Shown: positions 6,490-58,832 of the stretch, piece by piece
Numbering within the stretch: position 1 is the stretch's first letter
Layout: each line of letters opens with the position of its first letter
Source: Eubacteriales bacterium
GTDB taxonomy: Bacteria; Bacillota; Clostridia; Oscillospirales; CAG-382
Direction of reading: 5' to 3'
Length of the DNA: 64,000 nt
Assembly: GCA_041672465.1 (NCBI GenBank)
Contig: JBAYZO010000006.1
Coordinates: 1,938-65,937 of the forward strand
Made by a program: the position numbers and the translations under genes
The notes under the pieces: generated by a model
What the model saw: only the letters and a program-made list of their open reading frames with translations
Told to the model about the DNA's origin: nothing
The model's database searches: none

Positions 6490-6518
6490 TTGACAAGACG
6501 CGTCCGGCTTGCTATAAT
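6490..6518 (+). promoter_or_regulatory. Consensus sigma-A promoter for the tRNA pair
   Basis: TTGACA (6490-6495), a 17-nt spacer, then TATAAT (6513-6518). The -10 ends 13 nt upstream of the tRNA-Met 5' end. Confidence 0.65.
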
Positions 6519-6531
6519 ACACAAGTCACGC

Positions 6532-6608
6532 GGCGGAATAGCTCAGCTGGCTAGAGCATCCGGTTCATACCCGGCAGGTCGTTGGTTCAAATCCGACTTC
6601 CGCTACCA
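6532..6608 (+). tRNA. tRNA-Met (CAT anticodon, elongator type)
   Basis: Manual cloverleaf: acceptor GGCGGAA/TTCCGCT, D-arm TAGCTCAGCTGGCTAGAGC, anticodon loop TTCATAC, T-arm GTTGG-TTCAAAT-CCGAC, encoded CCA. It resembles Bacillus elongator tRNA-Met. A lysidine-modified Ile2 tRNA cannot be excluded. Confidence 0.85.
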
Positions 6609-6659
6609 TTTTTTAAAGCCTTTTAACTGCCGCCGCCTTAGCGCCGAAAAAGGCGAAAA

Positions 6660-6734
6660 GGCCCGTTGGTCAAGTGGTTAAGACACCGCCCTTTCACGGC
6701 GGTAACAGCAGTTCGAACCTGCTACGGGTCACCA
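6660..6734 (+). tRNA. tRNA-Glu (TTC anticodon)
   Basis: GGCCCGTTGGTCAAGTGGTTAAGACACCGCC-CTTTCAC-GGCGG followed by the T-arm and ACGGGTCACCA. This is the typical Firmicutes tRNA-Glu sequence with encoded CCA. Confidence 0.9.
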
Positions 6735-6736
6735 TA

Positions 6737-6775
6737 AAAGCACGCACACGCTTAACGCGGCGGCGTGCTTTTTGT
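6737..6775 (+). terminator. Rho-independent terminator after the tRNA pair
   Basis: AAAGCACGC ... GCGTGCTTT stem followed by a T run. Confidence 0.6.
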
Positions 6776-7057: not shown

Positions 7058-9340
7058 ATGACTGAGCTTAAAAAGTTCCCGCCGTCGGTAGTGGCGTTCT
7101 TTGGGGAAAAAGGCATTCCCAAGGACGAATGTATCATAACCATGGAAAGCGACATGGGTGGGGACGGCGTTTATAAAAACGTTTACATACTCCTGACAAA
7201 AGAAAAAATAGCGGTTGCTGAAGGGTTTATCACTTTTGAGGGTAAAGCGAAGCAGGACAAAAGGATCGAATACTTCAACTGCAACCGTTTTGAGGAAATC
7301 CCCATAGAAAAGTGTGAAAGCTTTTCTGTGGAGTTGTTTATTTCCGGCGGCAGAGCAGTTTGCGAAACAAGCGGGAAGACAAAAGAAGTTTTCAGATTTA
7401 CCTCGTCTTTTAAGCACGACGCCAATGTGCTCTGCAACGCCGCGAATCAGCTTAAAAAAGACGGCAAAGTAGACGAGGAAAAGCTAAAGGGCGAGAGCGA
7501 GGAATCAAGGTTTTGCCCCACCTGCCACCGCCGCTACCCCGACCCGGACCGCAAGATTTGCCCGAAATGTATGGAAAAAGCAAAGCTTGTAAAACGGCTC
7601 TCGGTGCTGTTTTTAAAGTACAAATACTATATATTTCTTATTTTTATCGCTTTCGGGCTTGTGGCGAGCCTTGGGATTGTCGCCCCCTATGTGTCAAACG
7701 ACGTGTTTTACAACAAGGTTTTGGCAAAGGGCGGCTCCATGTACGGGAAAATAGGCACCGTTGTGCTTATGATAATAGGAGTGCGGCTGTTGTCGCTTGT
7801 CATTTCGGTAATCAACGGCATTTTGAACGCGAAAATTTCCGCCGAAGTCGTATATGACCTTAAAAAAACCATTTTCAACACTATCGGCGGGCTTTCGCTG
7901 CGGTTTTTTACCAACCGTCAGACCGGCGGACTTATGACGCAAATCAACTCGGACGCCACCACGATATACTGGTTTTTCTGCGACGGTTTCCCTTATCTTG
8001 TGACAAACATACTTCAGCTCCTCGCGGTGCTGGTTGTCATGCTGACCATGGACCCGCTGCTGACGCTTTACACTTTTATAACAATTCCCATTTTTGTTGT
8101 CGCCTTTAAACTCACCTTTACCATGTTCAGCAAGCTCCACGCGCGTTCTTATTCAAAACGCCGGTCGTTTAACTCGTTAATCTCGGACGTGCTCAACGGG
8201 ATGAGGGTGGTCAAGTCCTTCTCAAGGGAAGAGGCCGAAATAAAAAGGTTTCAGGACCGCTCGCAGGCTCAGGCGGACGCGCAAACCACAATAGGAGTCA
8301 CCGCCAATAAAATATTCCGTATGCTGGGCTTTTTAATGAAGATAGGCATTTATGTCGTCTGGGGCGTGGGGGGCTGGCAGGTTATGAAGCACACCGGCAG
8401 CCTTAACTACGGCAAGCTTATGACTTTTATCGCCTATGTGGGGATGATCTACGACCCGCTTGACTTTTTCGCCGACGTCTCAAACTGGTGGTCGGAATGT
8501 CTTAACGCCCTCCAGCGGCTGTTTGAGATAAGCGACTCCATACCCGAGGTAAAAGAGGCGGAAAACCCGGTGGTGTTTGACAAAATACTCGGCAAAGTGG
8601 AATTCAAAGACGTTACTTTTTCCTATGAGGAAAACAGAACCGTCATTGACAACATATCTTTTTCAATCCCCGCCGGCGATACCCTTGGCATCGTGGGCAA
8701 AACGGGGGCGGGAAAGTCAACGCTCGCCAATCTTCTCACCCGGCTGTACGACCCGAATATGGGCGAGATATTTATCGACGACGTTAACCTTAAAAACCTT
8801 TCGTTTGACTCGCTCCGCCGCGCCGTTGCCATTGTGTCTCAGGAAACTTATTTGTTCAGGGGAACGCTGATGGAAAACATTCGCTACGCGCGCCCCGACG
8901 CCACAAATGAGGAGGTTATCGCCGCCTCAAAAATCGCCTCCGCCCACCAGTTTATAATCAAATACCCCGACGCCTACGAAACCATGGTCGGCTTTGGGTA
9001 TAAGGAACTCTCCGGGGGCGAAAAGCAAAGGGTGTCTATCGCCCGCGCGGTTTTAAAAAACCCGAGCATTCTTGTGCTTGACGAGGCGACCGCCGCCATG
9101 GATACCCAGACCGAAAGGCAGATTCAAACGGCGCTTGACAACCTGACCAAAAACCGCACCACCATAATTATCGCGCACAGGCTTTCAACCCTCCGCGACG
9201 CCGACAGCCTTATTGTCCTTGAGGACGGCAAAGTGCCGGAAAAGGGCTCGGCTACCGAACTGCTTAAGAAAAAGGGCAAATACTTTGAGCTATATAAAAT
9301 GCAGGCGCAGGCGCTAAAGACTATTGGAATTGAGGAATGA
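7058..9340 (+). CDS. ABC exporter half-transporter (TMD+NBD) with N-terminal cytoplasmic domain and C4 zinc ribbon
   Basis: 760 aa. A roughly 150-aa soluble N-domain is followed by CPTC-x11-CPKC (residues 153-171). Six TM-type ABC exporter membrane regions follow. The NBD has GKTGAGKST, LSGGEKQR, LVLDEATAAMD and AHRL. Confidence 0.9.
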   Translation: MTELKKFPPSVVAFFGEKGIPKDECIITMESDMGGDGVYKNVYILLTKEKIAVAEGFITFEGKAKQDKRIEYFNCNRFEEIPIEKCESFSVELFISGGRAVCETSGKTKEVFRFTSSFKHDANVLCNAANQLKKDGKVDEEKLKGESEESRFCPTCHRRYPDPDRKICPKCMEKAKLVKRLSVLFLKYKYYIFLIFIAFGLVASLGIVAPYVSNDVFYNKVLAKGGSMYGKIGTVVLMIIGVRLLSLVISVINGILNAKISAEVVYDLKKTIFNTIGGLSLRFFTNRQTGGLMTQINSDATTIYWFFCDGFPYLVTNILQLLAVLVVMLTMDPLLTLYTFITIPIFVVAFKLTFTMFSKLHARSYSKRRSFNSLISDVLNGMRVVKSFSREEAEIKRFQDRSQAQADAQTTIGVTANKIFRMLGFLMKIGIYVVWGVGGWQVMKHTGSLNYGKLMTFIAYVGMIYDPLDFFADVSNWWSECLNALQRLFEISDSIPEVKEAENPVVFDKILGKVEFKDVTFSYEENRTVIDNISFSIPAGDTLGIVGKTGAGKSTLANLLTRLYDPNMGEIFIDDVNLKNLSFDSLRRAVAIVSQETYLFRGTLMENIRYARPDATNEEVIAASKIASAHQFIIKYPDAYETMVGFGYKELSGGEKQRVSIARAVLKNPSILVLDEATAAMDTQTERQIQTALDNLTKNRTTIIIAHRLSTLRDADSLIVLEDGKVPEKGSATELLKKKGKYFELYKMQAQALKTIGIEE

Positions 9341-9350
9341 TTTTTTACGA

Positions 9351-9417
9351 GCAACTTTTTGTCTTTGCAGTTTAATAAACTGCAATTTCGCTAAAGCGAA
9401 ACCGACAAAAACATTGC
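9351..9417 (+). repeat. Nested-hairpin repeat element (same family as 62680-62879, opposite genomic strand)
   Basis: Outer stem GCAACTTTTTGTC/GACAAAAACATTGC encloses hairpins TTGCAGTTTAATAAACTGCAA and TTTCGCTAAAGCGAAA. Both inner hairpins are near-identical to the reverse complement of the 62.7-62.9 kb units. Confidence 0.8.
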
Positions 9418-9495
9418 GGTTCTCTAAATAAATAAGTACTAAGCGTAACCACAAAAAGCTTGTATACCGATAGAAAGAAAGGACTGGTTATAAAA

Positions 9496-10080
9496 ATGCC
9501 GGAAAATTCAATTAATGCTAAAAACGATTATTTGGAAATAATTGAAATAATATACCTCTCCCCCGAAAACGCCGAGTTTTATGAGACCGAAAACGGTTTT
9601 CCCTGCGTCAAGGCCTTTATTCCTCCTGTCAAGAAAGACGACCTTGAGGAAGAAGCCTCCAAAGACCCCGTATGGCAGGACTTGGGGCGGGCGTTTTTCC
9701 ACCGCGCTTTTCCCTTTGACGACGCCGAAAACTTTATTTCCGTCACCGACAAGGACGGCAACGAGTACGGAGTCATAAAAAGCCTTGACCTGTTTGACGG
9801 GGCGGGGAGAGATATTATTGAAAAAGAGCTTAAGCGAAAATATTTTACCCCTGTTATCACAAAAATACTGTCTTTAAAAGAGCGGTTCGGCTATTCCTAC
9901 TGGGAAGCCGACACCAATCACGGCAGAATGTCGTTCGCCATGCACGACACTTACAGGAATATCGCCAAGGTTTCTGAAAGCCGGCTAATTTTAACCGATG
10001 TTGACGGAAACAGATTTGAGATCCCTGACGTCTTCGGGCTTGACAGAAAAAGCTTTAGAAAAATAGAGCTTTATTTGTAA
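9496..10080 (+). CDS. DUF1854 domain-containing protein
   Basis: About 194 aa from ATG 9496 (the track ORF starts at TTG 9460). The pattern RAFPF, ISV.D.DG.E, FTPVI and D.DGNRFEIPD...LD..S matches my recollection of PF08909. That family typically sits beside ABC exporter genes. Confidence 0.7.
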   Translation: MPENSINAKNDYLEIIEIIYLSPENAEFYETENGFPCVKAFIPPVKKDDLEEEASKDPVWQDLGRAFFHRAFPFDDAENFISVTDKDGNEYGVIKSLDLFDGAGRDIIEKELKRKYFTPVITKILSLKERFGYSYWEADTNHGRMSFAMHDTYRNIAKVSESRLILTDVDGNRFEIPDVFGLDRKSFRKIELYL

Positions 10081-10127
10081 CCCCAACCGCAAAAACTTTT
10101 GCAAATTTGATAAGGAATGATAACTAT

Positions 10128-12368
10128 ATGCCTCCCAAACTAAAAACAAACCGCCATCTGTACGACGGCGTTTTGGAGCGGGTGAAGGCCTCTTTTGACG
10201 CCGAACCGCAGTTTACCTTCAGGTACAACTTGTCAAGAGACAACATATATATCGTCGGCGCGGGCGGGGTGGGGAAAAATACCCTTCACTTGTGCGGCGA
10301 TAAAAAGAATGAAACGGGAAAAACAGAAATAATAACGCTTTCCATCGCAGATATGGACGATATCGAGTATATTCAGTATGTCGGCTGCGCCGCCATTGAG
10401 TACACCTCCGGCGGGGTGAGAAAAGAGCTTTGCCGAAGCGATATGAAAAACGCCGTCGCCCTTCAAAACACCGTTAAGCGGCTGAAAGCCGTCCGCGACG
10501 GCAGGGTTATAGGCGCTATCGACGAAAACGAGGACTTCACAAGCTGCCCGAACTGCGGCACGCCCTACCGCGCCGGGTCAAAGACCTGCGCCGTCTGCGC
10601 CAACCGTAAAAAGCTGTTTATGCGGGTGATTCCGTTCGCGAAGGACTACAAGTGGCCGATCGCTCTGTCGCTGGTTTTGTTTTTCGCAGTCACGGCAATT
10701 AATATTTACGCTCCTTATATAAGCAAGGAGCTTATCGACGGGTATCTAAGCGTTAAGGACGGACTGCCGGGCCCGGACAGCGGGTTTTTCAAGCTTATTG
10801 CCGCCATGGTGGGGGTGGCGTTTTTGCTGACCCTCCTCCCCATGCTGAGGCAGATAATTCTTGTTAAGGTCGGCAACAAAATTTCGGTCAACCTAAAAGA
10901 GGCAGTTTACCGCAAGGTTCAGGAAATGTCGCTGGCAGGTATCAGCAAAAGGACGGCGGGGGAAATTATCACCCGGATAACACAGGACACCGACGTCATG
11001 AGAGACTTTTTGGTGGCTGTGCTCCCCGACGTTTTGCGAATCGGGCTGACGTTTATCGGGGTAAGCCTTGTGATGTTCTTTATGAGCTGGCAGCTCACGC
11101 TTCTCGTACTCCTCCCCATTCCCTTTATAATGATAATGTTTTATTTCCTGCGGACCTTTATGCACTCGATTTTTGTAAGGCAGTGGCATTCGGAATCGGC
11201 GGTGAACTCGCTGCTCCACGACGTGTTTTCGGGGATACGCGTGGTAAAAGTCTTCGGCACCGAAAAATACGAATCCGTGCGGTTTGACAAAGCCGCCAAA
11301 AAGGTCGCGGATATATCTAAAAAGAACGAAAAGACTTGGAACACAATAATGCCTTTCGCTTTCTTTCTGCTTGGAATCGGCGAGTACGCCGTGCTGTTTT
11401 TCGTGGGGGGAAAAATTATCGACGGCGCTATGACGCTGGGTCAGCTCACTTTGTTTATGAGCTATGTCTATATGATTTACGGCCCGGTAAGACAGGCCGC
11501 TTTCTTGCCGAGGCAGTTCGCCAGAGCCATGACGTCTATGTCAAAGGTGTTCGAGCTCCTTGACGAGCAGCCCGAAGTCGCCGATATAGAAATACCGGTC
11601 GAAAGGGATATCATAGGCGACATTCATTTTGAGAACGTCCGATTTGGGTATAATAACTATGAGGACGTGCTTAAAAACATCACCGTCGGCATTAACAAAG
11701 GTGACATGGTGGGGCTTGTCGGGCGAAGCGGCGTGGGGAAATCCACCCTTATTAACCTTGTCATGCGCCTTTACGACGTGACGGGCGGGGGAATAAAAAT
11801 TGACGGCACCGATATCCGCGAATACGAACAGCACTGCCTTAGGTCGCAAATCGGCGTGGTTTTGCAGGAGACATATCTCTTCCGGGGGACGATATACTCA
11901 AACATCGCCTACGCCCTGCCGGGCTGCACAAAAGAGGACGTTATAAAAGCCTCCAAGCTCGCCAACGCGCACCAGTTTATAATGAAGCTCCCCGACGCCT
12001 ACAACACCCTTGTGGGGGAAAGAGGGCAGACGCTCTCGGGCGGAGAAAAGCAAAGAGTGGCAATCGCCCGCGCCGTGCTCCGCAACCCGAGAATACTTAT
12101 TCTTGACGAGGCGACGGCGTCGCTTGACACCATCACCGAAAAGCTTATCCAAGACGCCCTTAACCAGCTTACCTCCGGGAGGACGACTATCGCCATCGCT
12201 CACAGGCTCGCCACCCTCCGCAACGCCACAAAGCTTATAGTGCTTGAAAGGGGCGAGATAGAGGAAGTCGGCACCCATGACGAGCTTTTAGCGAACGGCA
12301 AGAGGTATTACAAGCTTGTAATGGCGCAGAGACAAATGTCGCGGATGTTAAAGACAAAAAAGCGGTGA
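10128..12368 (+). CDS. ABC exporter half-transporter (TMD+NBD) with N-terminal cytoplasmic domain and C4 zinc ribbon
   Basis: The N-domain is followed by CPNC-x10-CAVC, then the TMD. The NBD has GRSGVGKST, LSGGEKQR, LILDEATASLD and AHRL. The start is ATG 10128 or TTG 10107. Confidence 0.9.
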   Translation: MPPKLKTNRHLYDGVLERVKASFDAEPQFTFRYNLSRDNIYIVGAGGVGKNTLHLCGDKKNETGKTEIITLSIADMDDIEYIQYVGCAAIEYTSGGVRKELCRSDMKNAVALQNTVKRLKAVRDGRVIGAIDENEDFTSCPNCGTPYRAGSKTCAVCANRKKLFMRVIPFAKDYKWPIALSLVLFFAVTAINIYAPYISKELIDGYLSVKDGLPGPDSGFFKLIAAMVGVAFLLTLLPMLRQIILVKVGNKISVNLKEAVYRKVQEMSLAGISKRTAGEIITRITQDTDVMRDFLVAVLPDVLRIGLTFIGVSLVMFFMSWQLTLLVLLPIPFIMIMFYFLRTFMHSIFVRQWHSESAVNSLLHDVFSGIRVVKVFGTEKYESVRFDKAAKKVADISKKNEKTWNTIMPFAFFLLGIGEYAVLFFVGGKIIDGAMTLGQLTLFMSYVYMIYGPVRQAAFLPRQFARAMTSMSKVFELLDEQPEVADIEIPVERDIIGDIHFENVRFGYNNYEDVLKNITVGINKGDMVGLVGRSGVGKSTLINLVMRLYDVTGGGIKIDGTDIREYEQHCLRSQIGVVLQETYLFRGTIYSNIAYALPGCTKEDVIKASKLANAHQFIMKLPDAYNTLVGERGQTLSGGEKQRVAIARAVLRNPRILILDEATASLDTITEKLIQDALNQLTSGRTTIAIAHRLATLRNATKLIVLERGEIEEVGTHDELLANGKRYYKLVMAQRQMSRMLKTKKR

Positions 12369-12427: not shown

Positions 12428-13825
12428 ATGACTAACAAAGAAAAAACAATGGACAAAATCGTTGCCTTTTGCAAAGGCAGGGGGTTTATTTACGGCGGGA
12501 GCGAAATATACGGCGGGCTCGCGAACACTTGGGATTACGGCCCGCTTGGCGTTGAGCTGAAAAACAACGTAAAAAAAGCCTGGTGGAAGAAGTTTGTCCA
12601 GGAATCCCCTTACAACGTGGGGATTGACAGCGCCATACTCATGAACCGCGAGGTTTGGGTGGCGTCGGGGCATATCTCAAGCTTTAACGACCCGCTTATT
12701 GACTGCCGTTCCTGCAAGATGAGGCATAGAGCCGACAATCTGATAGAGGCTTGGGCAAAAGAAAAAGGGGAAGAAGTCAGCGTCGAAACCCTTGACAACG
12801 ACGCGATGACTGAATTTATAGCTAAAAACAATGTCGCCTGCCCCGGCTGCGGCAAGAGCGACTTCACCCCGATAAGAAAATTCAACATGATGTTTAAAAC
12901 TTTTCAGGGTGTTACCGAGGACGGCGCAAACGAGGTATACCTCCGCCCCGAGACCGCTCAGGGGATTTTTGTAAACTTTAAAAACATAACCCGTACCACG
13001 CGGAAGAAGATACCTTTCGGCGTGTGCCAGATAGGAAAATCCTTTAGAAACGAGATAACCCCGGGCAACTTCACCTTCCGCACGCGGGAATTTGAGCAAA
13101 TGGAGCTTGAGTTTTTTTGCAAGCCGGGTGATGACCTCGAATGGTTTGATTATTGGAAGAATTATTGCCATAACTGGCTTATCGAACTCGGGCTAAAGGA
13201 CGAAAACCTAAAGCTCCGCGACCACGACAAAGCGGAACTTTCGTTTTACTCAAGGGCGACTACCGATTTTGAATACCTGTTCCCCTTTGGCTGGGGGGAG
13301 CTGTGGGGGGTCGCCGACAGGACTGACTATGATTTGTCCGCCCATATGAAACGCTCGGGCGAGGATCTCACTTATTTTGACCAAGACGAAAACACAAAAT
13401 ATATCCCCTATGTAATAGAACCGTCGCTCGGCGCCGACAGGGTCACGTTAGCGTTTTTAATCGACGCGTATGACGAGGAGGAAGTCCCGGACACCGCCGG
13501 CGAAACCCGCGCGGTGCTTAGGCTCCACCCGGCGCTGTCCCCGTTCAAGGCGGCGGTGCTTCCGCTTTCAAAAAAGCTTTCCCCAAGGGCCCGCGAGGTT
13601 CACGCTCTGCTCTCAAAGTATTTTATGACCGATTACGATGAGTCGGGCTCCATAGGCAAGCGGTACAGACGGCAGGACGAGATTGGCACGCCGTTTTGCG
13701 TGACATTTGACTTTGATTCCGAAACCGACGGGAGCGTAACCGTCCGCGACAGGGACACCATGGCGCAGGAAAGGCTTAAAATAAGCGAGGTCAAGGCGTA
13801 TATAGAAGAAAAAATAATTTTTTAA
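12428..13825 (+). CDS. glyQS: Glycine--tRNA ligase (class II, alpha2 type)
   Basis: [22 protein letters not shown], class II motifs and a C-terminal anticodon-binding domain. ATG 12428 follows a GGAAG/TGGAG SD. Confidence 0.93.
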
Positions 13826-15050: not shown

Positions 15051-15475
15051 TTAAAGAGCAGTAAAAAAATAACGGCGAGCAAAAGATAAACCAACCCGGC
15101 GAATATGAGGTGAAGATATTCCCGCTTTTTTTCGCTCATCGCCAGACGGTATTCATAAAAATCGCGGTAGGTTCGTTTTTCCTTTGAAATATCCCTTTTA
15201 AAGAGCAAAAAAAACGTTCTTATGCCGTAACGCAGCATATCAAACGTCCCCTGAGCCGAAATAACCGTCAACATACCTATACCGATAAACAAAACGCCGG
15301 GGATTAAAAAGGAATCCGAAAGCCGCCTTAAAGTTTGGGGCATGTCTTCCCCCCTGCCGCCGTACAGGGCGAAAACCCCCGCGAAAATAAGCCCGCCGAC
15401 GCTAAGCGAGACAATAAAAGGAATAAGATTCTTTATTCTGTCTCTGATTCTGCTTTCGGCGGGTTTTGGTTTCAT
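15035..15475 (-). CDS. Small membrane protein, DUF3899-like
   Basis: The start is taken at ATG 15475, forming an ATGA overlap with the oppF stop. The protein has 3-4 hydrophobic helices and the motif FDMLRYGIRTFF...YRDFYEYR. Confidence 0.55.
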   Translation of the reverse strand: MKPKPAESRIRDRIKNLIPFIVSLSVGGLIFAGVFALYGGRGEDMPQTLRRLSDSFLIPGVLFIGIGMLTVISAQGTFDMLRYGIRTFFLLFKRDISKEKRTYRDFYEYRLAMSEKKREYLHLIFAGLVYLLLAVIFLLLFNKSSA

Positions 15476-16528
15476 GGCTTGTCTTTGGCTTCCCGGGATT
15501 TTTTGCAAGCTTCCTCCTCGGCGGAGTTGCAGAGGACGAAATGCCCGGGCGTGACTTCCCTAAGCGTGGGTTTATCGGTTGAATAGTCGTGGTCAAGGGC
15601 GGGCTCGTATTTCAGCCTGACCCTCTTTTTTTCATACAGCGGGTCGGGGAGGGGTATCGCCGACAGCAGCGCTTTGGTGTAGGGGTGGTACGGATGGGCG
15701 AAAAGCTCGTCGGTGTCGGCGAGTTCCACCATTTTGCCGTAGTACATAACGGCGATTCGGTCCGAAAAATACTTGACCACCGAGAGGTCATGGGCGATAA
15801 ACATTATCGTAAGCCCCATTTTAACCCGCAGGTCGTTGAGCAGGTTTATTATTTGCGCCTGTATCGAGACGTCAAGCGCCGAGATAGGCTCGTCGGCTAT
15901 TATGAGTTCCGGCTCAAGCGCCATGGCGCGGGCGATGCCGATACGCTGTTTTTGCCCGCCCGAAAACTCATGCGGATAGCGTTCGGCGTGTTCGGGAACA
16001 AGCCCAACCATATCAAGCATTTCTCCCACGCGCTTGTCAATATAGGCTTTGTCGTTTTTACCTTTAATAATCAGCCCTTCGGATATTATTTCCCTGACCG
16101 TCATCCGCGGGTTGAGCGACGCGACGGGATCTTGGAAGATCATTTGCATTTTAGTCATTATACCGGCGTTTTTCACCTCGGCGACTTCTTTTTTAGCCCT
16201 TGTTATTTCAAGCTGTTTTTCTCTCGCCTCTTTAGTTTTTCCCGCTCTGCGGAGCTTTGCCAGCTGCTTTTTCTTCTCGTTGATCCCGCTGCTTATGCGA
16301 TGGCCTTTAAAGAAAATATCCCCGCCGGTGATTTCGTACAACTTAATGATATCCCTGCCTGTGGTCGTCTTCCCGCAGCCGGATTCCCCGACCATGCCGA
16401 ACACCTCGCCTTTTTTTATAAAGAACGAAATGTCGTCGACAGCCTTGACCACCGATCCCCTGCCCAGCTTAAAATATTGTTTTAAATGCTCTACCCGGAG
16501 GATTATTTCTCTGTTATCATTGTCGTTA

Positions 16529-16536
<8 letters not shown>
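15472..16536 (-). CDS. oppF: Oligopeptide/dipeptide-type ABC transporter ATP-binding protein (OppF-like, with insertion)
   Basis: GESGCGKTT, FQDP, FSGGQKQR, IADEPISALD and a C-terminal oligopeptide-type extension. A charged insert of about 45 aa lies before the Q-loop. Confidence 0.88.
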
Positions 16537-18652
<2,116 letters not shown>

Positions 18653-18655
18653 GAT

Positions 18656-20158
18656 TTATTCCTCCGTTCCCCTAAGCGACGGGTTAAACGCGTCGCGAAG
18701 TCCGTTGCCGAAGAGGTTAAACGAAATCATTAGTAACGAGATAACGAGCGACGGCCAAAAAATGATATGCGGGAAGTTCATAAGCGACCCCTGACCGTTT
18801 GCCAGCATGGCGCCGAGCGACGTGGTGTTTTTGCCCTGTAGGTTTACGATCCCGAGATATGACAAAAACGATTCTGAAAATATAACGCCGGGGATAACAA
18901 GCACCGAGGAAGTAATTATGGTTCCGATGGCGTTTGGGAAGATATGCTTGAACATAATCCGCGCGTCGCCCGCGCCGAGAGTCCTTGCCGCCAGCACATA
19001 TTCCTGCCCCTTAAAGCGGTAAAACTGAGTTCTGACGCGGTAGGCGGTTCCCAGCCAGCCGGTGAGCACAAAGGCGAACAGCAGCGCGGTAAACGCCGAA
19101 ACCTTGCCGGTTCTGACAAGGTGGAGCTGGAACAGCGTCGCCACCACCAAAAACGGCACCTCGTTTAGGATATCCGAAATCCTTTCCATTATTAGGTCTA
19201 TCCAGCCGCCGTAATAACCCTCGACAGCCCCGTAAATGGCGCCGATAATAAAGTTGATAATAGAAACAAAAACCGAAAGCAGCAGCGAAAGCCTGATTCC
19301 GTAAGCGAGGCGAACCATGATGTCGTATCCCTGCGTGTCGGTGCCCAAGATATATTGCGGCTCATTGCCGTTTTGATATATATAGTAATTGTAATAAAGG
19401 ATCCTCACCCTGTACTGCTTCGGGGCGTCTTTTTCGCTTGAGGCAATCGGGGTTTCGTAAAGTATATCGCCGTTTTTGTCGCGCTTGTAGTTGTCAACGT
19501 AAACGCCGTTTTTAGCCTCCGTGTACCACATATTGGCGTCGTTTTCGGAAAGCGGGACGTCAAGCACGGGATAAATAATGGTCAGTCCGGATTCTTTCTC
19601 CCACGCTATGATGGCGTCATATTCTTTTTGAGTGATTTGTTTAAATTGAAATCCTTCCTGATAGTAGACCTCAACATCCACATTATAATATGTCTTGCCG
19701 GCGTCAACGGTTGCGGAATAACTCTTTACGGGGTTATATTTATTTGCGGCGGCTATATCAAAAGAAGCATTTTTGTCTGTTTCTTTATTAAAAGTGGCGG
19801 CTACGCCTATGCCATAGATATAATTAAATTCATTTTGGTTGACCGTTTTATGAGTAATAGCGGTGCCGAGCCCTATTTTTGAGAGCAGAAAGCTCCTCGC
19901 GGTCTTTTTTTTATAGGTTATGTCGCTCTCGTACACCGCGTGGTTGGAAAAAAGCGGGGCAAGCAAGCCGAAAAGCACTATTACAATTATTATAATGGCG
20001 GCGACGACCGACGATTTATTTTTTCTGAACCTTATCCAAGCGTCTTTAAAATATCCGATCGGTTTTGTCTCGAACTTTAAGTCGTGTATATTTTTATCAA
20101 GCTGGGCAAACTCAAAAGCCCCTTTTTCAATCGGTTCCCTGTATTCGTTCGGACTCAT
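18656..20158 (-). CDS. oppC: ABC transporter permease (OppC/DppC-like) with large extracytoplasmic insertion
   Basis: 500 aa. N-terminal TM1 is followed by a hydrophilic segment of about 200 aa, then a BPD-transporter core with the EAA-like loop ARTLGAGDARIMFKHIFPN. Confidence 0.88.
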   Translation of the reverse strand: MSPNEYREPIEKGAFEFAQLDKNIHDLKFETKPIGYFKDAWIRFRKNKSSVVAAIIIIVIVLFGLLAPLFSNHAVYESDITYKKKTARSFLLSKIGLGTAITHKTVNQNEFNYIYGIGVAATFNKETDKNASFDIAAANKYNPVKSYSATVDAGKTYYNVDVEVYYQEGFQFKQITQKEYDAIIAWEKESGLTIIYPVLDVPLSENDANMWYTEAKNGVYVDNYKRDKNGDILYETPIASSEKDAPKQYRVRILYYNYYIYQNGNEPQYILGTDTQGYDIMVRLAYGIRLSLLLSVFVSIINFIIGAIYGAVEGYYGGWIDLIMERISDILNEVPFLVVATLFQLHLVRTGKVSAFTALLFAFVLTGWLGTAYRVRTQFYRFKGQEYVLAARTLGAGDARIMFKHIFPNAIGTIITSSVLVIPGVIFSESFLSYLGIVNLQGKNTTSLGAMLANGQGSLMNFPHIIFWPSLVISLLMISFNLFGNGLRDAFNPSLRGTEE

Positions 20159-21135
20159 TGTTTTTTCGCCCCCATTCTTATGCGCGGGTCAATAAACCCA
20201 TAACTTAAGTCAATTAGTATTGACGCCGCAAGCCCTATAAAGGTATAAAACATCCCCACCGCCATAAACACGTCATAGTCGAGAAGCGATATCGCCTTGA
20301 CATAAATTGGCCCGATGCCGGGAATCGCGAAAATTTGCTCGATAATGATCGAGCCGCCGAGCACCCCGACAAACGAACCGATTATCGCGGGCAAAATCGG
20401 CACCATCGCGTTGCGGAGAGCGTGGCGGCGGGTTGCCTGCGATTTTGATAGTCCTTTTGTGCGGGCGAGCAGCATATAGTCGCTGGTAAGCGTTTCGGTA
20501 AGTTCGGCGCGGGTGAATCTGGTCAGCCCGGCAATACTGCCGAAAGACAGCGCGAGCACGGGGAGGATTTGCGACCTGAACATGATCCAAGTGAAATAAG
20601 ACCCCCCCGCCTCCCTGAGGGATGCTTGAATAATCGGCAGAAGTCCTAATTTATACGCGATAAAATACTGGACGATAAAGGCGTAAACATAACTTGGCAC
20701 CGAATAAAAAACCATAGTGAGGGTGGAAAGCGTGTAGTCCTGCCATTTGTTCTTTTTGAGCGCCGAATAAATGCCTATAAGAATACCTATGGGCACCGAG
20801 AAAATAAGGGAGTAGGTGTTTACCAGCACCGTCGGCAGCAGTCTTGAAAAAATAACGTCGTTGACTGTCGAGAGGCGGTCAATCTTCCATGAAGTTCCCC
20901 AATCCCATTTTGTTATTATATTTTTAGCGTATATTCTAAGCTGTTCCAAGATAGGTTTGTTATACCCCAGCGCCTCTCTGCGAGCTTCCTCAACCGCGGC
21001 CTGATCGGCATACATAGCGTCTTCCCTTGAGTTGTCAAGCGCTTTTATAAGAACAAAACATATTGTAAAAATAATAACAAACGTCAGCAGCATCAGCAGT
21101 ATGCGCTTTAAGATATATAGTATCATATCGTTCAT
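20155..21135 (-). CDS. oppB: ABC transporter permease (OppB/DppB-like)
   Basis: 326 aa with N-terminal ILKRILLMLLTF and EAA loop ARTKGLSKSQATRRHALRNA. Its stop forms an ATGA overlap with the oppC start. Confidence 0.9.
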   Translation of the reverse strand: MNDMILYILKRILLMLLTFVIIFTICFVLIKALDNSREDAMYADQAAVEEARREALGYNKPILEQLRIYAKNIITKWDWGTSWKIDRLSTVNDVIFSRLLPTVLVNTYSLIFSVPIGILIGIYSALKKNKWQDYTLSTLTMVFYSVPSYVYAFIVQYFIAYKLGLLPIIQASLREAGGSYFTWIMFRSQILPVLALSFGSIAGLTRFTRAELTETLTSDYMLLARTKGLSKSQATRRHALRNAMVPILPAIIGSFVGVLGGSIIIEQIFAIPGIGPIYVKAISLLDYDVFMAVGMFYTFIGLAASILIDLSYGFIDPRIRMGAKKQ

Positions 21136-21340
21136 ATATCTTTGTTTCTCCTGTTTCTGGTTCTACACGATTACGCCCTTTTTTACACAAACAGACAATC
21201 TAACGCCGGAACTCAGCTTAAAAACAATCTTATGTTATATGTTATATGTTATACTAAAGACGGCTTTTATATTATAAATTCCGCTAAAAGGCAATAATCA
21301 GGAAAATTTATCCGCAATGATAAGAAAAATTTGTTTTACT

Positions 21341-21372
21341 AAAGACAGGGCGTAAACATACGCCCTGTCTTT
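21341..21372 (-). terminator. Strong intra-operon hairpin after the binding-protein gene (candidate partial terminator or RNA stabiliser)
   Basis: 13-bp perfect stem AAAGACAGGGCGT/ACGCCCTGTCTTT with a 6-nt loop. It lies about 100 nt downstream of the SBP stop and upstream of oppB. The U-tract is weak. Confidence 0.45.
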
Positions 21373-21472
21373 AAGCGTCTCGGTTACAAACAGTTTAATA
21401 GATTTTTACCGGGCTTCAGACCGACTCGCGGCAATAAAGCCGGCAATAGTAATAATCTAATATAAGTATCTG

Positions 21473-23893
21473 TTATGAGTAAACCTTGCCGCCGCCGGAA
21501 ACATATGCGTCCCAGCCGGTGTCATCATAGTTATAGGTGAGGAAACGAATCCCGCCGTAACCGTACATGATGTTATATTCGGTGGTGGCATATTTTATTT
21601 TGTTTGAATAAGCGGAAACCGTTGCAAGACTGGTGAGAACGATAAAGTGGTATCCCTTGATGAGGTTATACTCAAGCGCGGCGAGTATTGTAAGCATTTT
21701 GCTGTAGTCGCCGGTGGTGCTGTAGTTGTCCCCGCCCGGGTTAATGGATATCGCCCATTCTTGGTAGGTTCTTGTTACGTCCTTGCCGTTAAGTTTGATC
21801 GTGACCGTTTCGGTCGTCGGGTCAAAACCGCACTGTTCGTGAATGGTGTTGACATGGCTCGGGTCGGTGTAGACGCGTATGAGCGCGAAAGGATAGAAAG
21901 AGGCCCCGCCCCACGCGCCCATCGCCATTTCGTTAACGCCGTTTGCCACGTCGTCATACCTGTTGGGGGACGTGGTGTAGGTAATTTTGATCTTACCCTC
22001 AAACGGAGTGTCTTTAGTAGCTTCGTCGATGTAGCCCTGGATAAGGGTGTTTCTTATAGACTGTTCATCGGTCAAAGACTCGTTGGCGCCGACCGAGCAG
22101 GTGAACTCAAAGACATCGGTATCGGTGAGGTCGCCCTCTGCTTTCGCTTCAGCGTAAACATCGGCGAACAGAGCCCTCGCTTTTTCGATATCAAAGCCGG
22201 TTATGGCGTTATAAGCCTCGTCAAGCGTGGCGTATTCTTTGCCCTCGCCGTACTCAATACCGTAAACATCGGTGATAACCTTTTTAGCCTCGTCGGATTT
22301 TCTGTAAATGGAATCCGGGTCGTTTTCAACATCATAATAGTACTGAGAATTTATAAGGCCGAGCGCGACTGTTTCGCCGGCGGTGCCCTTTTTGGCGTAG
22401 TCCGCTCTGTCAATGGCGAACGACATGGCTTCCCTGAACTTATCATACGCGAGAATGACTTTGTTTACCCTCTTGCTGGTGGAGGAAGCGTTGTCGGAAA
22501 GCGTCTCAAGCACTTCTTTGTCGGTCACAAAGAAGAAACGGTAGGTATAGGTTTCTTCTGTCCTCAAAAGGTTATCGGCAAAGCGATAGGTGTCCATATC
22601 CTCGGCGGTGAGCTCGACAGAGTCAAGTTTGCCGGTGTTGAACAGTTCGAGTTCCGTGTTGTGGTCGGAAATTACCGAGCAAATAATTTTATCGGTGGTG
22701 TAATGGCCTTTATGCTTGTCGTCAGAATAACCGTACCAGTTAAGGTTTCTTTCAAAAACAATTTCTTTGTCTTTTTCAAAAGAAGAAAGTTTATACGGGC
22801 CAAACGACTTGTAGCTGTCAACCGATTTGCCGTAAGTGGTGGCGACAAGCTCTCCCACGTCTTTTTTGTTCGCTTCGTATAATTCTTCATAGACAATCCA
22901 GTTGGATGTGCCGGCTGTGTTCATATAGAACTGGGTGATGGTGTTAAGGGTTATGTAAAGGAACGTGTAGTCGTCTACTACCTTAAAACCAACCTCATCC
23001 CAAGTGCCGTCGCCGACCGAGATAATGGAGACCGCGAGATAGGTTGACGCGTAAGCGGCGTAGACGGCATCCTGCGCGAGATAGGTTTCAAAGATATATT
23101 TGGCGGAAACCCAGTCTTCATCCTCGCCTTCCGTAACGGCGGCGTCGCGGTACATGGTGTCGTCGTTAATGTTGACAAAGTTAGGGCAGGCGTTGCCTTC
23201 CTCGTCGACACAGCCTTCACCGTCAAGACCCCAGAATTTCCACATATCGACAAAAACATCTTCGTCTTCGGCTTCTTCGGCAAAATCATAACCGGCGTCG
23301 CCAAGCGCTTTGTATGACACCGCCGGGCCGCCGGAGTAGTAGCTGAACGCGCCGTAAATGGCGGCGTCGCCGGAAAAATAGTTGTTTGCTCTGTAGTTTT
23401 TCATTGCCGGGTCAAGCAGGGCTTTGAGCGAATACTCATAAGTAGCCGCGTTAATAACCGTGCCGTCTTCCCATTTCGCGTTTTTGTTTAACTTATAAAG
23501 CCAAACGCGTCCGGTGTCCTCTTCGTCAATGTCCCAATCCGCAAGGTCGATGTCGTAATCCGCGGCGTTGGCGGTGACGTCTTTGATATCGTCGGCCATT
23601 TCAAAATTCCACTTAAAAGTTTCATTTTCCTTGTCGTAAATGGCGTCGACAAATCCCATTTCCGCGTAATCCGAGATATAACGATCCCCGTTTGTTTCCC
23701 AGGTATGCGGGTTCCAGTTCTGCGGGTTAGCTCCGATGTATTCGCGAAGTGTATAGTCTTTTTCATCGTCTATTCCGCTTTTACCGGGTGTCTCGCTTTT
23801 AGTGCCGTCCGATCCGCCGCCGCAAGCGCTGAGCGCTACCATGGCGAATACAAAAAGCAGCGATAAAGCGAGCGCAAGTACCTTCTTGTACAT
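21473..23893 (-). CDS. ABC transporter substrate-binding lipoprotein, family 5 (peptide/nickel type), enlarged
   Basis: 806 aa with signal peptide and lipobox LSAC-GGGS. It is the first gene of the opp-like operon. The size is about 250 aa above typical OppA/DppA. Confidence 0.8.
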   Translation of the reverse strand: MYKKVLALALSLLFVFAMVALSACGGGSDGTKSETPGKSGIDDEKDYTLREYIGANPQNWNPHTWETNGDRYISDYAEMGFVDAIYDKENETFKWNFEMADDIKDVTANAADYDIDLADWDIDEEDTGRVWLYKLNKNAKWEDGTVINAATYEYSLKALLDPAMKNYRANNYFSGDAAIYGAFSYYSGGPAVSYKALGDAGYDFAEEAEDEDVFVDMWKFWGLDGEGCVDEEGNACPNFVNINDDTMYRDAAVTEGEDEDWVSAKYIFETYLAQDAVYAAYASTYLAVSIISVGDGTWDEVGFKVVDDYTFLYITLNTITQFYMNTAGTSNWIVYEELYEANKKDVGELVATTYGKSVDSYKSFGPYKLSSFEKDKEIVFERNLNWYGYSDDKHKGHYTTDKIICSVISDHNTELELFNTGKLDSVELTAEDMDTYRFADNLLRTEETYTYRFFFVTDKEVLETLSDNASSTSKRVNKVILAYDKFREAMSFAIDRADYAKKGTAGETVALGLINSQYYYDVENDPDSIYRKSDEAKKVITDVYGIEYGEGKEYATLDEAYNAITGFDIEKARALFADVYAEAKAEGDLTDTDVFEFTCSVGANESLTDEQSIRNTLIQGYIDEATKDTPFEGKIKITYTTSPNRYDDVANGVNEMAMGAWGGASFYPFALIRVYTDPSHVNTIHEQCGFDPTTETVTIKLNGKDVTRTYQEWAISINPGGDNYSTTGDYSKMLTILAALEYNLIKGYHFIVLTSLATVSAYSNKIKYATTEYNIMYGYGGIRFLTYNYDDTGWDAYVSGGGKVYS

Positions 23894-24148: not shown

Positions 24149-25480
24149 TCAGCCGTAAAGGGCCTGATCCGCGTTCCATTCGGAAAGTATGTAAATGACA
24201 TAGTCGGCGTTGTATCTCACAATATTATTAACGCTGTATGTGTAATCCCACATTTTCTGGAACAGAGTGTTGTTCAGGTTCCCCGCTATGAGGTCGGTCA
24301 GCTGGGTGCCGTAAGAGTCGCGGATAACAATGGCGTTCGGCAGTTCGGGGCGGTTCGCGGCGATAAAATGCCGATAGGTGACCTCCTCGCTGTAAACCCC
24401 GGTCTCTTTAAAGCGTTTTCGCTCTACCCCCGTCACGTCCGTTTTCATCGACCTGAAAAAGCTGTACTCAAGGCAGTCGGAATCGAAAAACCCCGGCGTG
24501 AGATACACGGGGGACGTCATTTTTAAATAGTTGAGCATATCCCCGGTTTTAAAATACCCCGAATACCAGTCAAAATAATCAAAGTCATACGGGGCGGCGG
24601 AGGGAAAATCCTCTTTGATTATGCCGAACAGCTCGCGATAAGCGACAAACGCCCCGTACTCTGTCCAGTGGCTGTCGGTTTTATAGTACAGCGGAAGCTC
24701 GTCATACTTATGGAGGGTAAAAACCTCGTCAAGGTCAATCGCCACCGCGCCGCCCTTGCGTATCGCCTCTATAATAAGCTGCCGCTTTGTCTTCCCCGCT
24801 CCCTGCGCGTATTCATCCGGGACAAGCTCGGGGTAGATTGAAATAACCGACGGCGCTATTATATATATGATTTTTGTGTTCATCCCGTTATTTTTCAATT
24901 CGTTAACTCGTGTTTTTATTCGGTTTGTAAGAGAGTTCAGAGCCGATTCTGAGGGGAGGTTTTGCCTTTTAAAATCCCTAAGGCATTTTTCATAGAAAAA
25001 CTGAAAATTCCCCCCCGCCACCACGCCCTCGGCGTCGCCCGGACGGGTTGGCGGCTTGCCGTACAGGGTTTCGCCCTCCGCCCTTACGCCGCCGATTTCT
25101 TGGGTAAGCGTTGTTTCAAGACCGCTTGAATATTTCACCCGCACCGAAAACCACCCGTAAAACGACTGCGAAAAGACGCTTTGCCCGTCAGAGGTAACCG
25201 CCCTTACAACCGCGCCGTCCTCGCAGGTCCCCACCATCACGGCGTAGGGGCTTTGGTCATAGGCGAAATACATAACCGAAACAGGCGTTATAACCGGGGT
25301 TGGTATATCGGAACTCATATTGCTGTTCTCACTCTCGCCGCTTTGGCCGCTTTCGCTTTCCTCGCCGTTTTGGTTTGAGATTTCTTCCTCAGACGACAGG
25401 TCATCTGAGGAAGACGGGCAGGAACAAAGAAAAACCGACATTATAAGCGCCAAAGCGCAAATTACTAACCTCTTTAGCAT
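24149..25480 (-). CDS. DHHW-family / AlgJ-AlgX-like SGNH-type lipoprotein (putative O-acyltransferase or esterase)
   Basis: Lipobox FLCSC, an acidic Ser/Glu linker, a beta-rich domain, then KTDSHWTEYGAFVAYRELF (D-x-H-W signature). It is a paralog of 58833-60461. Confidence 0.7.
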   Translation of the reverse strand: MLKRLVICALALIMSVFLCSCPSSSDDLSSEEEISNQNGEESESGQSGESENSNMSSDIPTPVITPVSVMYFAYDQSPYAVMVGTCEDGAVVRAVTSDGQSVFSQSFYGWFSVRVKYSSGLETTLTQEIGGVRAEGETLYGKPPTRPGDAEGVVAGGNFQFFYEKCLRDFKRQNLPSESALNSLTNRIKTRVNELKNNGMNTKIIYIIAPSVISIYPELVPDEYAQGAGKTKRQLIIEAIRKGGAVAIDLDEVFTLHKYDELPLYYKTDSHWTEYGAFVAYRELFGIIKEDFPSAAPYDFDYFDWYSGYFKTGDMLNYLKMTSPVYLTPGFFDSDCLEYSFFRSMKTDVTGVERKRFKETGVYSEEVTYRHFIAANRPELPNAIVIRDSYGTQLTDLIAGNLNNTLFQKMWDYTYSVNNIVRYNADYVIYILSEWNADQALYG

Positions 25481-32217: not shown

Positions 32218-32379
32218 ATGAAAGTTAAGAGAATTAAAACCTTAAAGACCCGCGACTTATGCGTCAGCGCCGTAAAAGGCGGCTGCGGCGAATGCCAGAC
32301 TTCCTGCCAGTCCGCCTGCAAAACGTCCTCGGGCGTGGCTAACCAGCCCTGCGAAAACCAAAAGTCAAAGCAGCGGTAA
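32218..32379 (+). CDS. SCIFF (six-cysteines-in-forty-five) ranthipeptide precursor
   Basis: Hand translation gives MKVKRIKTLKTRDLCVSAVKGGCGECQTSCQSACKTSSGVANQPCENQKSKQR. An AAAGGGG SD lies 8 nt upstream. It sits directly upstream of the cognate radical SAM maturase. It is absent from the ORF track because it is under 60 aa. Confidence 0.9.
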   Translation: MKVKRIKTLKTRDLCVSAVKGGCGECQTSCQSACKTSSGVANQPCENQKSKQR

Positions 32380-32411
32380 AACAAGTTATGCCTTTGCACG
32401 GCAGAGCATAT

Positions 32412-32453
32412 AAAGGGCCGACGCATACGCATATGCCGAGGTCCTTTTAATTT
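32412..32453 (+). terminator. Hairpin plus T-tract between precursor and maturase genes (candidate attenuator)
   Basis: AAAGGGCC ... GGTCCTTTT outer stem (one G-U pair) with inner stem GCATA-CGCA-TATGC, followed by TTTTAATTT. Confidence 0.55.
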
Positions 32454-32470
32454 GGAGATGGATTTAACAA

Positions 32471-33958
32471 ATGATTCACATGTATAAGCTAAACGGCTAT
32501 AACATAGTCCTTGACACCTACAGCGGGAGCGTCCACAGCGTGGACGACGTCGCGTATGATATGATTTCGCTTTACCAAAGCCTTGGCGGGGGCAAAGAAG
32601 GGGAGGGGGAAATTATACGCCTGCTGACGGAAAAATACGGCGCAGGCCATGGCGTGAGCCGCGGAGAGCTTGAAGAGTGTCTTTGCGATATAAAAGAACT
32701 AATAAACGAAAAAAAGCTTTTTAGCCCCGATATTTATAAAGACCTTGCCAAAACGCGCCATAAAAGCGACAATGCCGTGAAAGCGCTCTGCCTGCATGTC
32801 GCCCACACCTGCAACTTAAACTGCGAGTACTGTTTCGCGAGTCAGGGCAAGTATAAAGGGGAGCGGGCGCTTATGACGTTTGAGGCGGGAAAGCGGGCGA
32901 TTGATTTTCTTGTGGAAAACAGTTCTTCCCGCCATAACCTTGAAGTGGATTTTTTCGGCGGAGAACCGCTTATGAACTTTGACACGGTCAAGCGCCTTGT
33001 CGGCTACGCGAGGAGTATTGAAAAGTCAAAAAACAAGAATTTTCGGTTTACCCTCACCACAAACGGGCTGCTTATCGACGACGGGGTAATCGACTTCTGC
33101 AACAGAGAAATGGACAACGTAGTGCTCAGCCTTGACGGGAGAAAAGAAGTCCACGACCGTTTCAGGAAGGATTACCGCGGCAACGGCAGCTATGAAAGAA
33201 TTCTGCCGAAGTTCCGCGAGTTTGTAAAGCGGCGGGGGGATAAAAGCTATTATATCCGCGGCACATATACGCATCTGAACACCGACTTTACAAATGATTT
33301 GTTTCATATGGCGTCCCTTGGGTTTAAGCACCTTAGCATGGAGCCCGTGGTCTGCCCGCCCGGCGATATTTACGCGCTTACAAAAGAGGATATCCCGGTA
33401 TTGTTCGGGCAATATGAGATTTTGGCAAAGGAAATGATAAAGCGGGAAAAACAGGGCAACCCCTTTACCTTCTACCACTTTACCCTTGACCTTGAGGGCG
33501 GCCCCTGCGTTTACAAACGGATAAACGGCTGCGGGTCGGGGAGCGAATACCTTGCCGTGACCCCTTGGGGCGACCTGTACCCCTGCCACCAGTTTGTGGG
33601 GGACGAAAAATTTCTTATGGGGAACATTTATGACGGGGTGACAAATACAAATTTAAGGGAAAAGTTTAAAAAAACAAGCGCGTATTCCCGCGAGGAATGC
33701 GAGAATTGCTGGGCAAAGCTTTACTGTTCCGGCGGGTGCGCGGCAAACGCCTACCACGCCACGGGGGAGATAAACGGGGTTTATGAATACGGCTGCGAAC
33801 TGTTTAAAAAGCGAATGGAATGCGCGATAATGGTAAAAGTCGCCGCCGCCGATAGCGAAAGCGATGAAATTGACGGCCGCAACACGGAAAAAAGCCATAA
33901 CCGCGGCGAGCGCAATAAAGCGGAAAGCTTTCCGGCGGGTAAAAAAGCGGGGGTTTAA
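32471..33958 (+). CDS. SCIFF radical SAM/SPASM maturase (ranthipeptide thioether synthase)
   Basis: MIHMYKLNGYNIVLDTYSGSVHSVDD N-terminus, CNLNCEYC radical SAM cluster motif, and SPASM Cys clusters (CGSGSEY...YPCHQF...CENCWAKLYCSGGC). Confidence 0.92.
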   Translation: MIHMYKLNGYNIVLDTYSGSVHSVDDVAYDMISLYQSLGGGKEGEGEIIRLLTEKYGAGHGVSRGELEECLCDIKELINEKKLFSPDIYKDLAKTRHKSDNAVKALCLHVAHTCNLNCEYCFASQGKYKGERALMTFEAGKRAIDFLVENSSSRHNLEVDFFGGEPLMNFDTVKRLVGYARSIEKSKNKNFRFTLTTNGLLIDDGVIDFCNREMDNVVLSLDGRKEVHDRFRKDYRGNGSYERILPKFREFVKRRGDKSYYIRGTYTHLNTDFTNDLFHMASLGFKHLSMEPVVCPPGDIYALTKEDIPVLFGQYEILAKEMIKREKQGNPFTFYHFTLDLEGGPCVYKRINGCGSGSEYLAVTPWGDLYPCHQFVGDEKFLMGNIYDGVTNTNLREKFKKTSAYSREECENCWAKLYCSGGCAANAYHATGEINGVYEYGCELFKKRMECAIMVKVAAADSESDEIDGRNTEKSHNRGERNKAESFPAGKKAGV

Positions 33959-58772: not shown

Positions 58773-58832
58773 AACCTTGATTTCGCCGGCCTTTTATGGT
58801 ACAATATGCGCTGAAAGGTTTGGTTGCGAAAT

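Follow-up and report, generated by a model that had tools for sequence, protein, structure and literature searches.

A predicted three-gene ABC export system with PH-like, zinc-ribbon-bearing heads and a DUF1854 partner in Clostridia

A 64,000-nucleotide stretch from a Eubacteriales bacterium of the Clostridia (GenBank assembly GCA_041672465.1, contig JBAYZO010000006.1, positions 1,938 to 65,937; hereafter the window) contains three co-directional genes on the + strand: p1 and p2, which encode paralogous ABC half-transporters, and between them p3, which encodes a small protein of the DUF1854 family. Both half-transporters begin with a soluble region of about 150 residues that ends in a CxxC-x10/11-CxxC ribbon, here termed the head. 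Far from standing alone, this architecture is the hallmark of a catalogued family of ABC exporters that are associated with DUF1854. The reading that we favor, and hold to be rather probable, is that the genes specify a three-gene DUF1854-type ABC export system with p1 and p2 as a heterodimer, the DUF1854 protein as its accessory subunit and the heads as a docking or gating platform for a cargo that is exported. A preliminary description of the locus, made from its sequence, had presented the two ABC genes as a pair; the DUF1854 gene that it omitted makes this a three-gene module.

The N-terminal heads and the transporter cores

The ribbons comprise CPTC and CPKC in p1, with a spacer of 11 residues, and CPNC and CAVC in p2, with a spacer of 10. 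The first strongly hydrophobic segment begins 10-20 residues past the last cysteine, such that a single short helix separates the ribbon from the first transmembrane helix (TM1). The preliminary description was thus sound in assigning both half-transporters an N-domain of about 150 residues that ends in a C4 ribbon, its open reading frames (ORFs) and motif positions being exact, and the ribbon does precede TM1 as it had stated, with the one short helix in between. The ribbons give weak matches to the Pfam families Zn_Ribbon_1 (20.7 bits for p2, under the threshold) and DZR and to the ribosomal L32 and L40e ribbons, and a distant relative, P0290, reaches the Zn_Ribbon_1 cut-off; they are predicted to bind zinc. 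Since the topology of the transmembrane domain (TMD), with its six helices, places the N-terminus on the side of the nucleotide-binding domain (NBD), and since a Cys4 zinc site suits the reducing cytoplasm, the heads probably lie in the cytoplasm. In addition, the ribbon portion of the head profile picks up giant proteins of 1300-3200 aa (P0248, P0264, P0321) that consist of up to 37 tandem zinc-ribbon repeats and lack an ABC domain.

A word-index homolog search with the head alone returned only two fragments, and queries that joined the head to the TMD were needed to assemble orthologs down to ~40% identity: 118 of the p1 type (755-770 aa) and 115 of the p2 type (730-750 aa), from metagenome-assembled genomes (MAGs) of Clostridia, Eubacteriales and Ruminococcaceae. 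The preliminary description had staked its claim beforehand on the conservation of the cysteines in such orthologs, and all four are invariant (100%) in both sets, 118/118 and 115/115. As the quartet is fully conserved in these 233 orthologs and in 24/24 full-length ABC relatives from distant clusters, it is not a chance motif. These data also bear on the possibility that the N-terminal regions are a functionless, lineage-specific decoration whose Cys pairs are fortuitous or purely structural. No Pfam family covers the domain, as might be expected of a decoration, but the quartet is 100% conserved in the 233 orthologs and in distant clusters spanning 40-71% GC, the head is detectable from Clostridia to Ralstonia and the AlphaFold2 models are confident. 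The conservation data effectively refute this notion, which we regard as scarcely credible.

The two N-domains are homologous over their whole length (hhalign probability 98.2%, E 4e-14, 139 columns), as the preliminary description had proposed; its own alignment of them was right for the C-terminal helix and shifted at the beta-hairpin. Further invariant residues of the p2-type heads are L35, G86, C87, E91, E100 and R103, and p1-type heads have a different invariant set, namely D32, E55, G56 and E92 plus residues flanking the ribbon. A 'VGxG ... R(F/Y)S' signature of the distant relatives is retained by p2-type heads only, not by those of the p1 type. Thus, at the sequence level the two heads are paralogous, given their profile-profile homology over the whole length, yet diverged, given their differing invariant sets.

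The first ~140 residues of p1 and p2 have no match in Pfam and none in the PDB, by sequence or by profile. AlphaFold2 models of the heads, built on the ortholog alignments, share one topology: a helix at the N-terminus precedes seven beta-strands and a long capping helix, after which a linker connects to the ribbon and a final helix runs on into TM1. In the p1 model (md1539d3fb7f6; pLDDT 88.7) the strands occupy residues 27-115 and the capping helix 116-135, and in that of p2 (m80756f1e8221; pLDDT 89.8) residues 29-105 and 106-123, respectively. In Foldseek searches against the PDB all top matches of both models are PH or PTB domains: those of the p2 head include the PH domains of TBC1D23 (E 4e-4), Sin1 and GRK2 as well as the bacterial PH domains 3dcx and 3hsa, and the best match of the p1 head has an E-value of 1.2e-2. 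The models thereby support, as a predicted fold, the 'PH/GRAM-like feel' previously remarked upon, and support the heads as divergent bacterial PH-like domains at that level. By sequence, neither head has a significant match to the Pfam families bPH_1-6, and a distant relative, P0338, matches bPH_3 at E 0.0096 with 16.8 bits, under the cut-off of 23.

C-terminal to the heads, both proteins have a full-length match to PF00664 (ABC_membrane) and a match to PF00005 (ABC_tran), at residues 194-467 and 531-679 of p1, which is the domain composition of type-IV (ABCB/MsbA-like) half-transporters. The closest solved structures by sequence are ABCB1/4, Sav1866, TM287/288 and MsbA, and the alignments to them begin only past the head, at residue ~161. 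Walker A, Q-loop, signature, Walker B-Glu and H-loop are canonical in p1 and p2, in keeping with the preliminary account of consensus NBD motifs, and all are canonical in 116/118 p1-type and 113/115 p2-type orthologs. The two proteins share 38% identity over 659 aa and both ATP sites of the pair are of consensus type. In every related locus the two paralogous genes occur as a pair, which makes a heterodimer of p1 and p2 the most likely assembly; for it the motifs predict two catalytically competent ATP sites.

Comparison with well-studied transporters delimits what is distinctive here. The half-transporter fold (TMD followed by NBD) and the motifs of p1 and p2 are those of the heterodimers TM287/288 and TmrAB and of the homodimers Sav1866 and MsbA, and the two heterodimers likewise derive from two paralogous genes in one operon; unlike p1 and p2, all four are devoid of an N-terminal soluble head and of a DUF1854 partner. 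TM287/288 and TmrAB each have one degenerate ATP site, whereas both sites of the p1/p2 pair are of consensus type. A cytoplasmic N-terminal domain fused right before TM1 is also found in the peptidase-containing ABC transporter (PCAT) PCAT1 and in HlyB of type-1 secretion, where the C39 or C39-like domain serves cargo recognition. These offer an analogy of working principle only: the fold is papain-like in C39 as against PH-like plus zinc ribbon in p1 and p2, neither of which matches Peptidase_C39. The matches of p1 and p2 to the NCBIfam HlyB and bacteriocin_ABC models cover only the TMD-NBD core and fall below the cut-offs, and among the window ORFs scanned there is no bacteriocin or RTX substrate, membrane-fusion protein or outer-membrane gene near p1 and p2. 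A further parallel comes from the PH-domain proteins DdE and DdF, which are required for ABC-dependent export of the leaderless bacteriocin enterocin DD14. Like the heads, they tie PH-like domains to ABC export, in their case of a cytoplasmic peptide cargo; they are separate proteins rather than ABC-fused, neither a zinc ribbon nor DUF1854 has been reported for them, and the parallel drawn with the heads is one of PH-like fold.

The DUF1854 partner and conserved gene neighborhoods

The p3 protein is a clear member of DUF1854 (PF08909; 121.8 bits against a cut-off of 26.8). One relative connects this domain to the transporter physically: P0290 is a 930-aa polypeptide with the order head-TMD-NBD-DUF1854, i.e. 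with DUF1854 fused to the ABC C-terminus after the NBD; its gene (L017, 7779-10571) is solitary on its contig, which has no second ABC gene. We infer that the DUF1854 protein binds the transporter as an accessory subunit. The idea that DUF1854 is itself a diverged copy of the PH-like head was rejected at the sequence level, as hhalign comparison of DUF1854 profiles, including broader ones of 28 and 11 sequences, with both head profiles gave probabilities below 1%. Sequence and profile searches of the PDB found no solved structure for DUF1854, and a search of the PLSDB plasmids found no DUF1854 match.

A scan of species-representative genomes with a 10-sequence head alignment recovered 15 loci, all in Clostridia MAGs, with carriers such as Eubacteriales, Oscillospiraceae, Ruminococcus sp. 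CAG:382 and Ca. Woodwardibium. The gene order p1-DUF1854-p2 is found in 15/15 of them. In most, glycyl-tRNA synthetase is the next gene, and upstream the closest relatives have genes for RecG, SbcCD and a Cu-oxidase_4 protein; both in the window and in the related loci the operon is surrounded by housekeeping genes.

The preliminary description had asked how widespread the zinc-ribbon ABC architecture is and which genes co-occur with it. Beyond the co-occurrence of DUF1854 in all 15 Clostridia loci, an exhaustive HMMER search of 1.84 billion representatives of 50%-identity clusters with the p2-head profile matched 748 clusters at E<=1e-3 and 129 at E<=1e-10. Among the matches listed, 24/24 full-length ABC proteins have CxxC-x9-11-CxxC at residues ~110-210, with Walker A ~390 residues further on, the remainder being fragments and a few unrelated giant proteins made of zinc-ribbon repeats. 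Both Firmicutes and Proteobacteria contain the head-bearing family. Nine distant representatives, spanning 40-71% GC, were sampled for their neighborhoods: two show the order ABC-DUF1854-ABC (P0313, P0287), three a two-gene ABC-DUF1854 arrangement (P0384, P0338, P0367), one the above-described fusion (P0290) and two an ABC gene with no DUF1854 gene in the flanks (P0357, P0381), the ninth (P0318) lying on a short, uninformative contig. The loci with the three-gene order include L020, L021 and L027, and those with the two-gene arrangement L022, L023 and L026.

Relationship to a cyanophycin-associated family and mechanistic interpretation

The best NCBIfam models for the three proteins are NF052233, 'cyanophycin metabolism-associated ABC transporter' (p1 and p2), and NF052234, 'cyanophycin metabolism-associated DUF1854 family protein' (p3). 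The scores stay below the curated cut-offs: 488 bits for p1 and 534 bits for p2 against 880, and 81.8 bits for p3 against 150, such that p3 is not the cphA-associated equivalog. As a control we used a Ralstonia wenshanensis locus reached through P0384 (CP076412.1, KOL96_03340/03345), whose ABC protein scores 1460 bits with NF052233 and whose DUF1854 protein scores 234 bits with NF052234. On this megaplasmid two divergently transcribed cphA genes (cphA/cphA') adjoin the ABC and DUF1854 genes. The N-terminus of the Ralstonia ABC protein is a head of the same type, with 'GWLVVT', 'VGTLEL' and CPTC-x10-CPQC, and the p2-head profile, which aligns with the heads of distant relatives too, matches it at an hhalign probability of 92.4% (E 5e-7). 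p2 aligns end-to-end with this NF052233 member, N-domain included, at 35% identity over 724 aa, and p3 matches the Ralstonia DUF1854 protein at E 1e-15. The Ralstonia cluster (L028, CP076412.1 765445-785532) lies on a 1.8-Mb megaplasmid, and genes for a beta-lactamase-family protein, glucan biosynthesis protein D and an OXA-60-family carbapenemase are close by.

Thus, the earlier statement that no characterized ABC exporter was known with this N-terminal module stands insofar as the heads match no characterized regulatory family; the uniqueness that it implied does not, since the catalogued NF052233 family shares the head. That family resembles p1, p2 and p3 in combining a PH-like domain, a CxxC-x10-CxxC ribbon, a 6-TM domain and an NBD with an adjoining DUF1854 gene. 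It differs in several respects: it has one ABC gene, whereas the window system has two paralogous ones around DUF1854; the window system scores under both equivalog cut-offs and has no cphA/cphA' nearby; its DUF1854 protein has an extra insertion of ~17 residues; and its host is of a Gram-positive Clostridia lineage. The window locus is accordingly read as a heterodimeric Clostridial variant, not linked to cphA, of a catalogued exporter family that is genetically implicated and biochemically uncharacterized.

The genetic link comes from Price et al. (bioRxiv 10.1101/072470), who report cofitness of the DUF1854 gene, the ABC transporter and cphA/cphA' in Acidovorax and Cupriavidus; this was the sole relevant paper found in the literature on DUF1854/PF08909, zinc-ribbon ABC exporters and a cyanophycin exporter, and no paper found describes the PH-like/zinc-ribbon head. 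Together with the NCBIfam matches, the end-to-end alignment of p2 with the cphA-linked Ralstonia transporter and the homology of the DUF1854 proteins, it raises the prospect that the window system exports a cyanophycin-like polyamide made by a CphA-type synthetase whose gene lies elsewhere in the genome. We consider this quite unlikely: the scores lie far under the equivalog cut-offs, there is no cphA among the scanned ORFs of the window, beside the nine sampled distant relatives or in the flanks of the 15 Clostridial loci, and, according to a 2023 PNAS paper on cyanophycin enzymes, a process for exporting cyanophycin is not known. A search of the window for cphA or other cargo genes came out negative among the ORFs scanned, the largest of which encode a P-type ATPase, IF-2, an Opp binding protein, SbcC and RecG. 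The Clostridial form suggests that the cargo range of the family extends beyond what its present database name implies.

Under the favored reading, a three-gene DUF1854-type export system, p1 and p2 would pair as a heterodimer of type-IV (ABCB/MsbA-like) half-transporters, with the small cytoplasmic DUF1854 protein as an accessory subunit. Each head, i.e. the modeled PH-like sandwich, the Cys4 ribbon and the short helix into TM1, would sit at the cytoplasmic face of the membrane beside the intracellular helices, because the ribbon lies only 10-20 residues before TM1. The heads and DUF1854 together may then act as a docking or gating platform that, by analogy with other exporters, might recruit a cytoplasmically made cargo, either a peptide or a polymer, and/or couple the presence of cargo to the ATPase cycle. 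The cargo would thereafter be exported across the membrane, with outward transport and a cargo of this nature being the presumed ones. More speculatively, and with considerable doubt, we entertain the possibility that the heads and DUF1854 are a previously undescribed apparatus for cargo selection or gating, and that the Clostridial system is a core-genome heterodimer with two functionally different heads which exports a non-cyanophycin polymer or peptide for the Gram-positive envelope.

Several observations weigh against the export-system reading. The window contains no cphA among the ORFs scanned, which included every ORF of more than 680 aa, and no gene for synthesis of a cargo is conserved beside the operon. 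The Foldseek E-values are modest (4e-4 and 1e-2), and the support for this lineage is of a computational kind. The role of DUF1854 is drawn from its context, as by sequence the domain resembles neither the heads nor any solved structure, and it may not be obligatory, since the relatives P0357 and P0381 have the head and no DUF1854 gene within their flanks.

A different role for the heads would be purely regulatory or anchoring: they might bind anionic lipids or a small signaling ligand and so tune a general multidrug or lipid exporter, with DUF1854 as a regulator rather than a cargo adaptor. The PH fold, which is predicted for the heads, classically binds phosphoinositides and membranes, the modeled ribbon lies near the membrane face, the core is most like MDR/MsbA-type exporters (ABCB1, Sav1866, MsbA) and the operon sits among housekeeping genes. 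To our knowledge, however, bacterial PH domains are not generally lipid binders, the invariant E91, E100 and R103 make no basic lipid-binding patch, and in relatives the cofitness with polymer synthetases speaks for a dedicated cargo. This alternative therefore appears unlikely to us, and we retain the cargo-exporting system with a docking or gating platform as the favored interpretation.

Exporters with cytoplasmic N-terminal domains, e.g. the C39 domain or C39-like domain (CLD) in PCATs and HlyB and the SID domain in IrtA, have been informative on cargo selection. The present family is widespread, and its head (PH-like domain plus Cys4 ribbon) and its seemingly obligate partner DUF1854 are without a solved structure or described biochemistry, the sole functional clue being the cofitness with cyanophycin-synthetase-like genes in two beta-proteobacteria. 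The Clostridial form, being heterodimeric, with no cphA nearby and with two diverged heads, offers a natural asymmetric system in which to probe the roles of the head and DUF1854.

Locus layout and other features of the window

The coordinates of the genes and domains are collected in Table 1. The ORF of p3 opens at a TTG (9460), though the ribosome-binding site of the ATG at 9496 is the better one; that of p2 likewise opens at a TTG (10107-12368), with the ATG at 10128 as the likely start. The ATG of glyS lies 59 nt past the p2 stop with no terminator between them. Most related loci preserve the order ABC-DUF1854-ABC-GlyRS, so co-transcription of glyS with the exporter operon is possible.

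Table 1. Positions, in window coordinates, of the exporter genes, their N-terminal domains and the adjacent glyS gene
Feature	Position	Strand	Basis and remarks
p1, ABC half-transporter, 760 aa	7058..9340	+	ORF and translation; PH-like domain, C4 ribbon, 6-TM domain, NBD
p1 predicted PH-like beta-sandwich and capping helix (residues ~27-135), preceded by helix 9-17	7136..7462	+	AlphaFold2 model md1539d3fb7f6, Foldseek
p1 putative C4 zinc ribbon, CPTC-x11-CPKC (C153, C156, C168, C171)	7514..7570	+	CPTC 7514-7525, CPKC 7559-7570; Cys conserved in 118/118; sub-threshold Pfam zinc-ribbon matches
p3, DUF1854 protein, 194 aa from ATG	9496..10080	+	Pfam PF08909; probable accessory subunit
p2, ABC half-transporter, 746 aa from ATG	10128..12368	+	ORF, Pfam; architecture as p1
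p2 predicted PH-like beta-sandwich and capping helix (residues 29-123, ATG numbering), preceded by helix 9-21	10212..10496	+	AlphaFold2 model m80756f1e8221, Foldseek
p2 putative C4 zinc ribbon, CPNC-x10-CAVC (C140, C143, C154, C157, ATG numbering)	10545..10598	+	CPNC 10545-10556, CAVC 10587-10598; Cys conserved in 115/115
Glycyl-tRNA synthetase (glyS)	12428..13825	+	Translation; syntenic neighbor, not claimed as part of the system

An Rfam scan of the window found no riboswitch, T-box or leader before p1 or glyS, the only matches being two tRNA genes. These, tRNA-Met (6532-6608) and tRNA-Glu (6660-6734), follow a perfect sigma-70 promoter (12/12; 6490-6518) on the + strand and are themselves followed by a terminator-like hairpin immediately upstream of the p1 promoter region (this whole segment spanning 6490-6772). 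The spacer between p1 and the DUF1854 gene (9341-9495) is unusually long at 155 nt and contains two short AT-rich hairpins; in most related loci it measures 3-50 nt. An anti-phage defense system was considered as an identity for the locus and rejected, as PADLOC returned only generic ABC-ATPase matches and no defense-system signature.

Elsewhere in the window, an Opp-type peptide import operon on the - strand (15472-23893) encodes an SBP_bac_5 binding protein that is unusually large (806 aa) and an ATPase of 707 aa with two ABC_tran matches. A SCIFF system (32218-33958) encodes a precursor peptide with six Cys (32218-32379, ...GGCGECQTSCQSACKTSS...) and, after it, the cognate radical-SAM maturase (32471-33958; TIGR03974, 732 bits). 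Two proteins with AlgX-like SGNH domains, encoded at 24149-25480 (-) and 58824-60461 (+), the second of which has PT repeats, may be acetylation factors for envelope polysaccharides.

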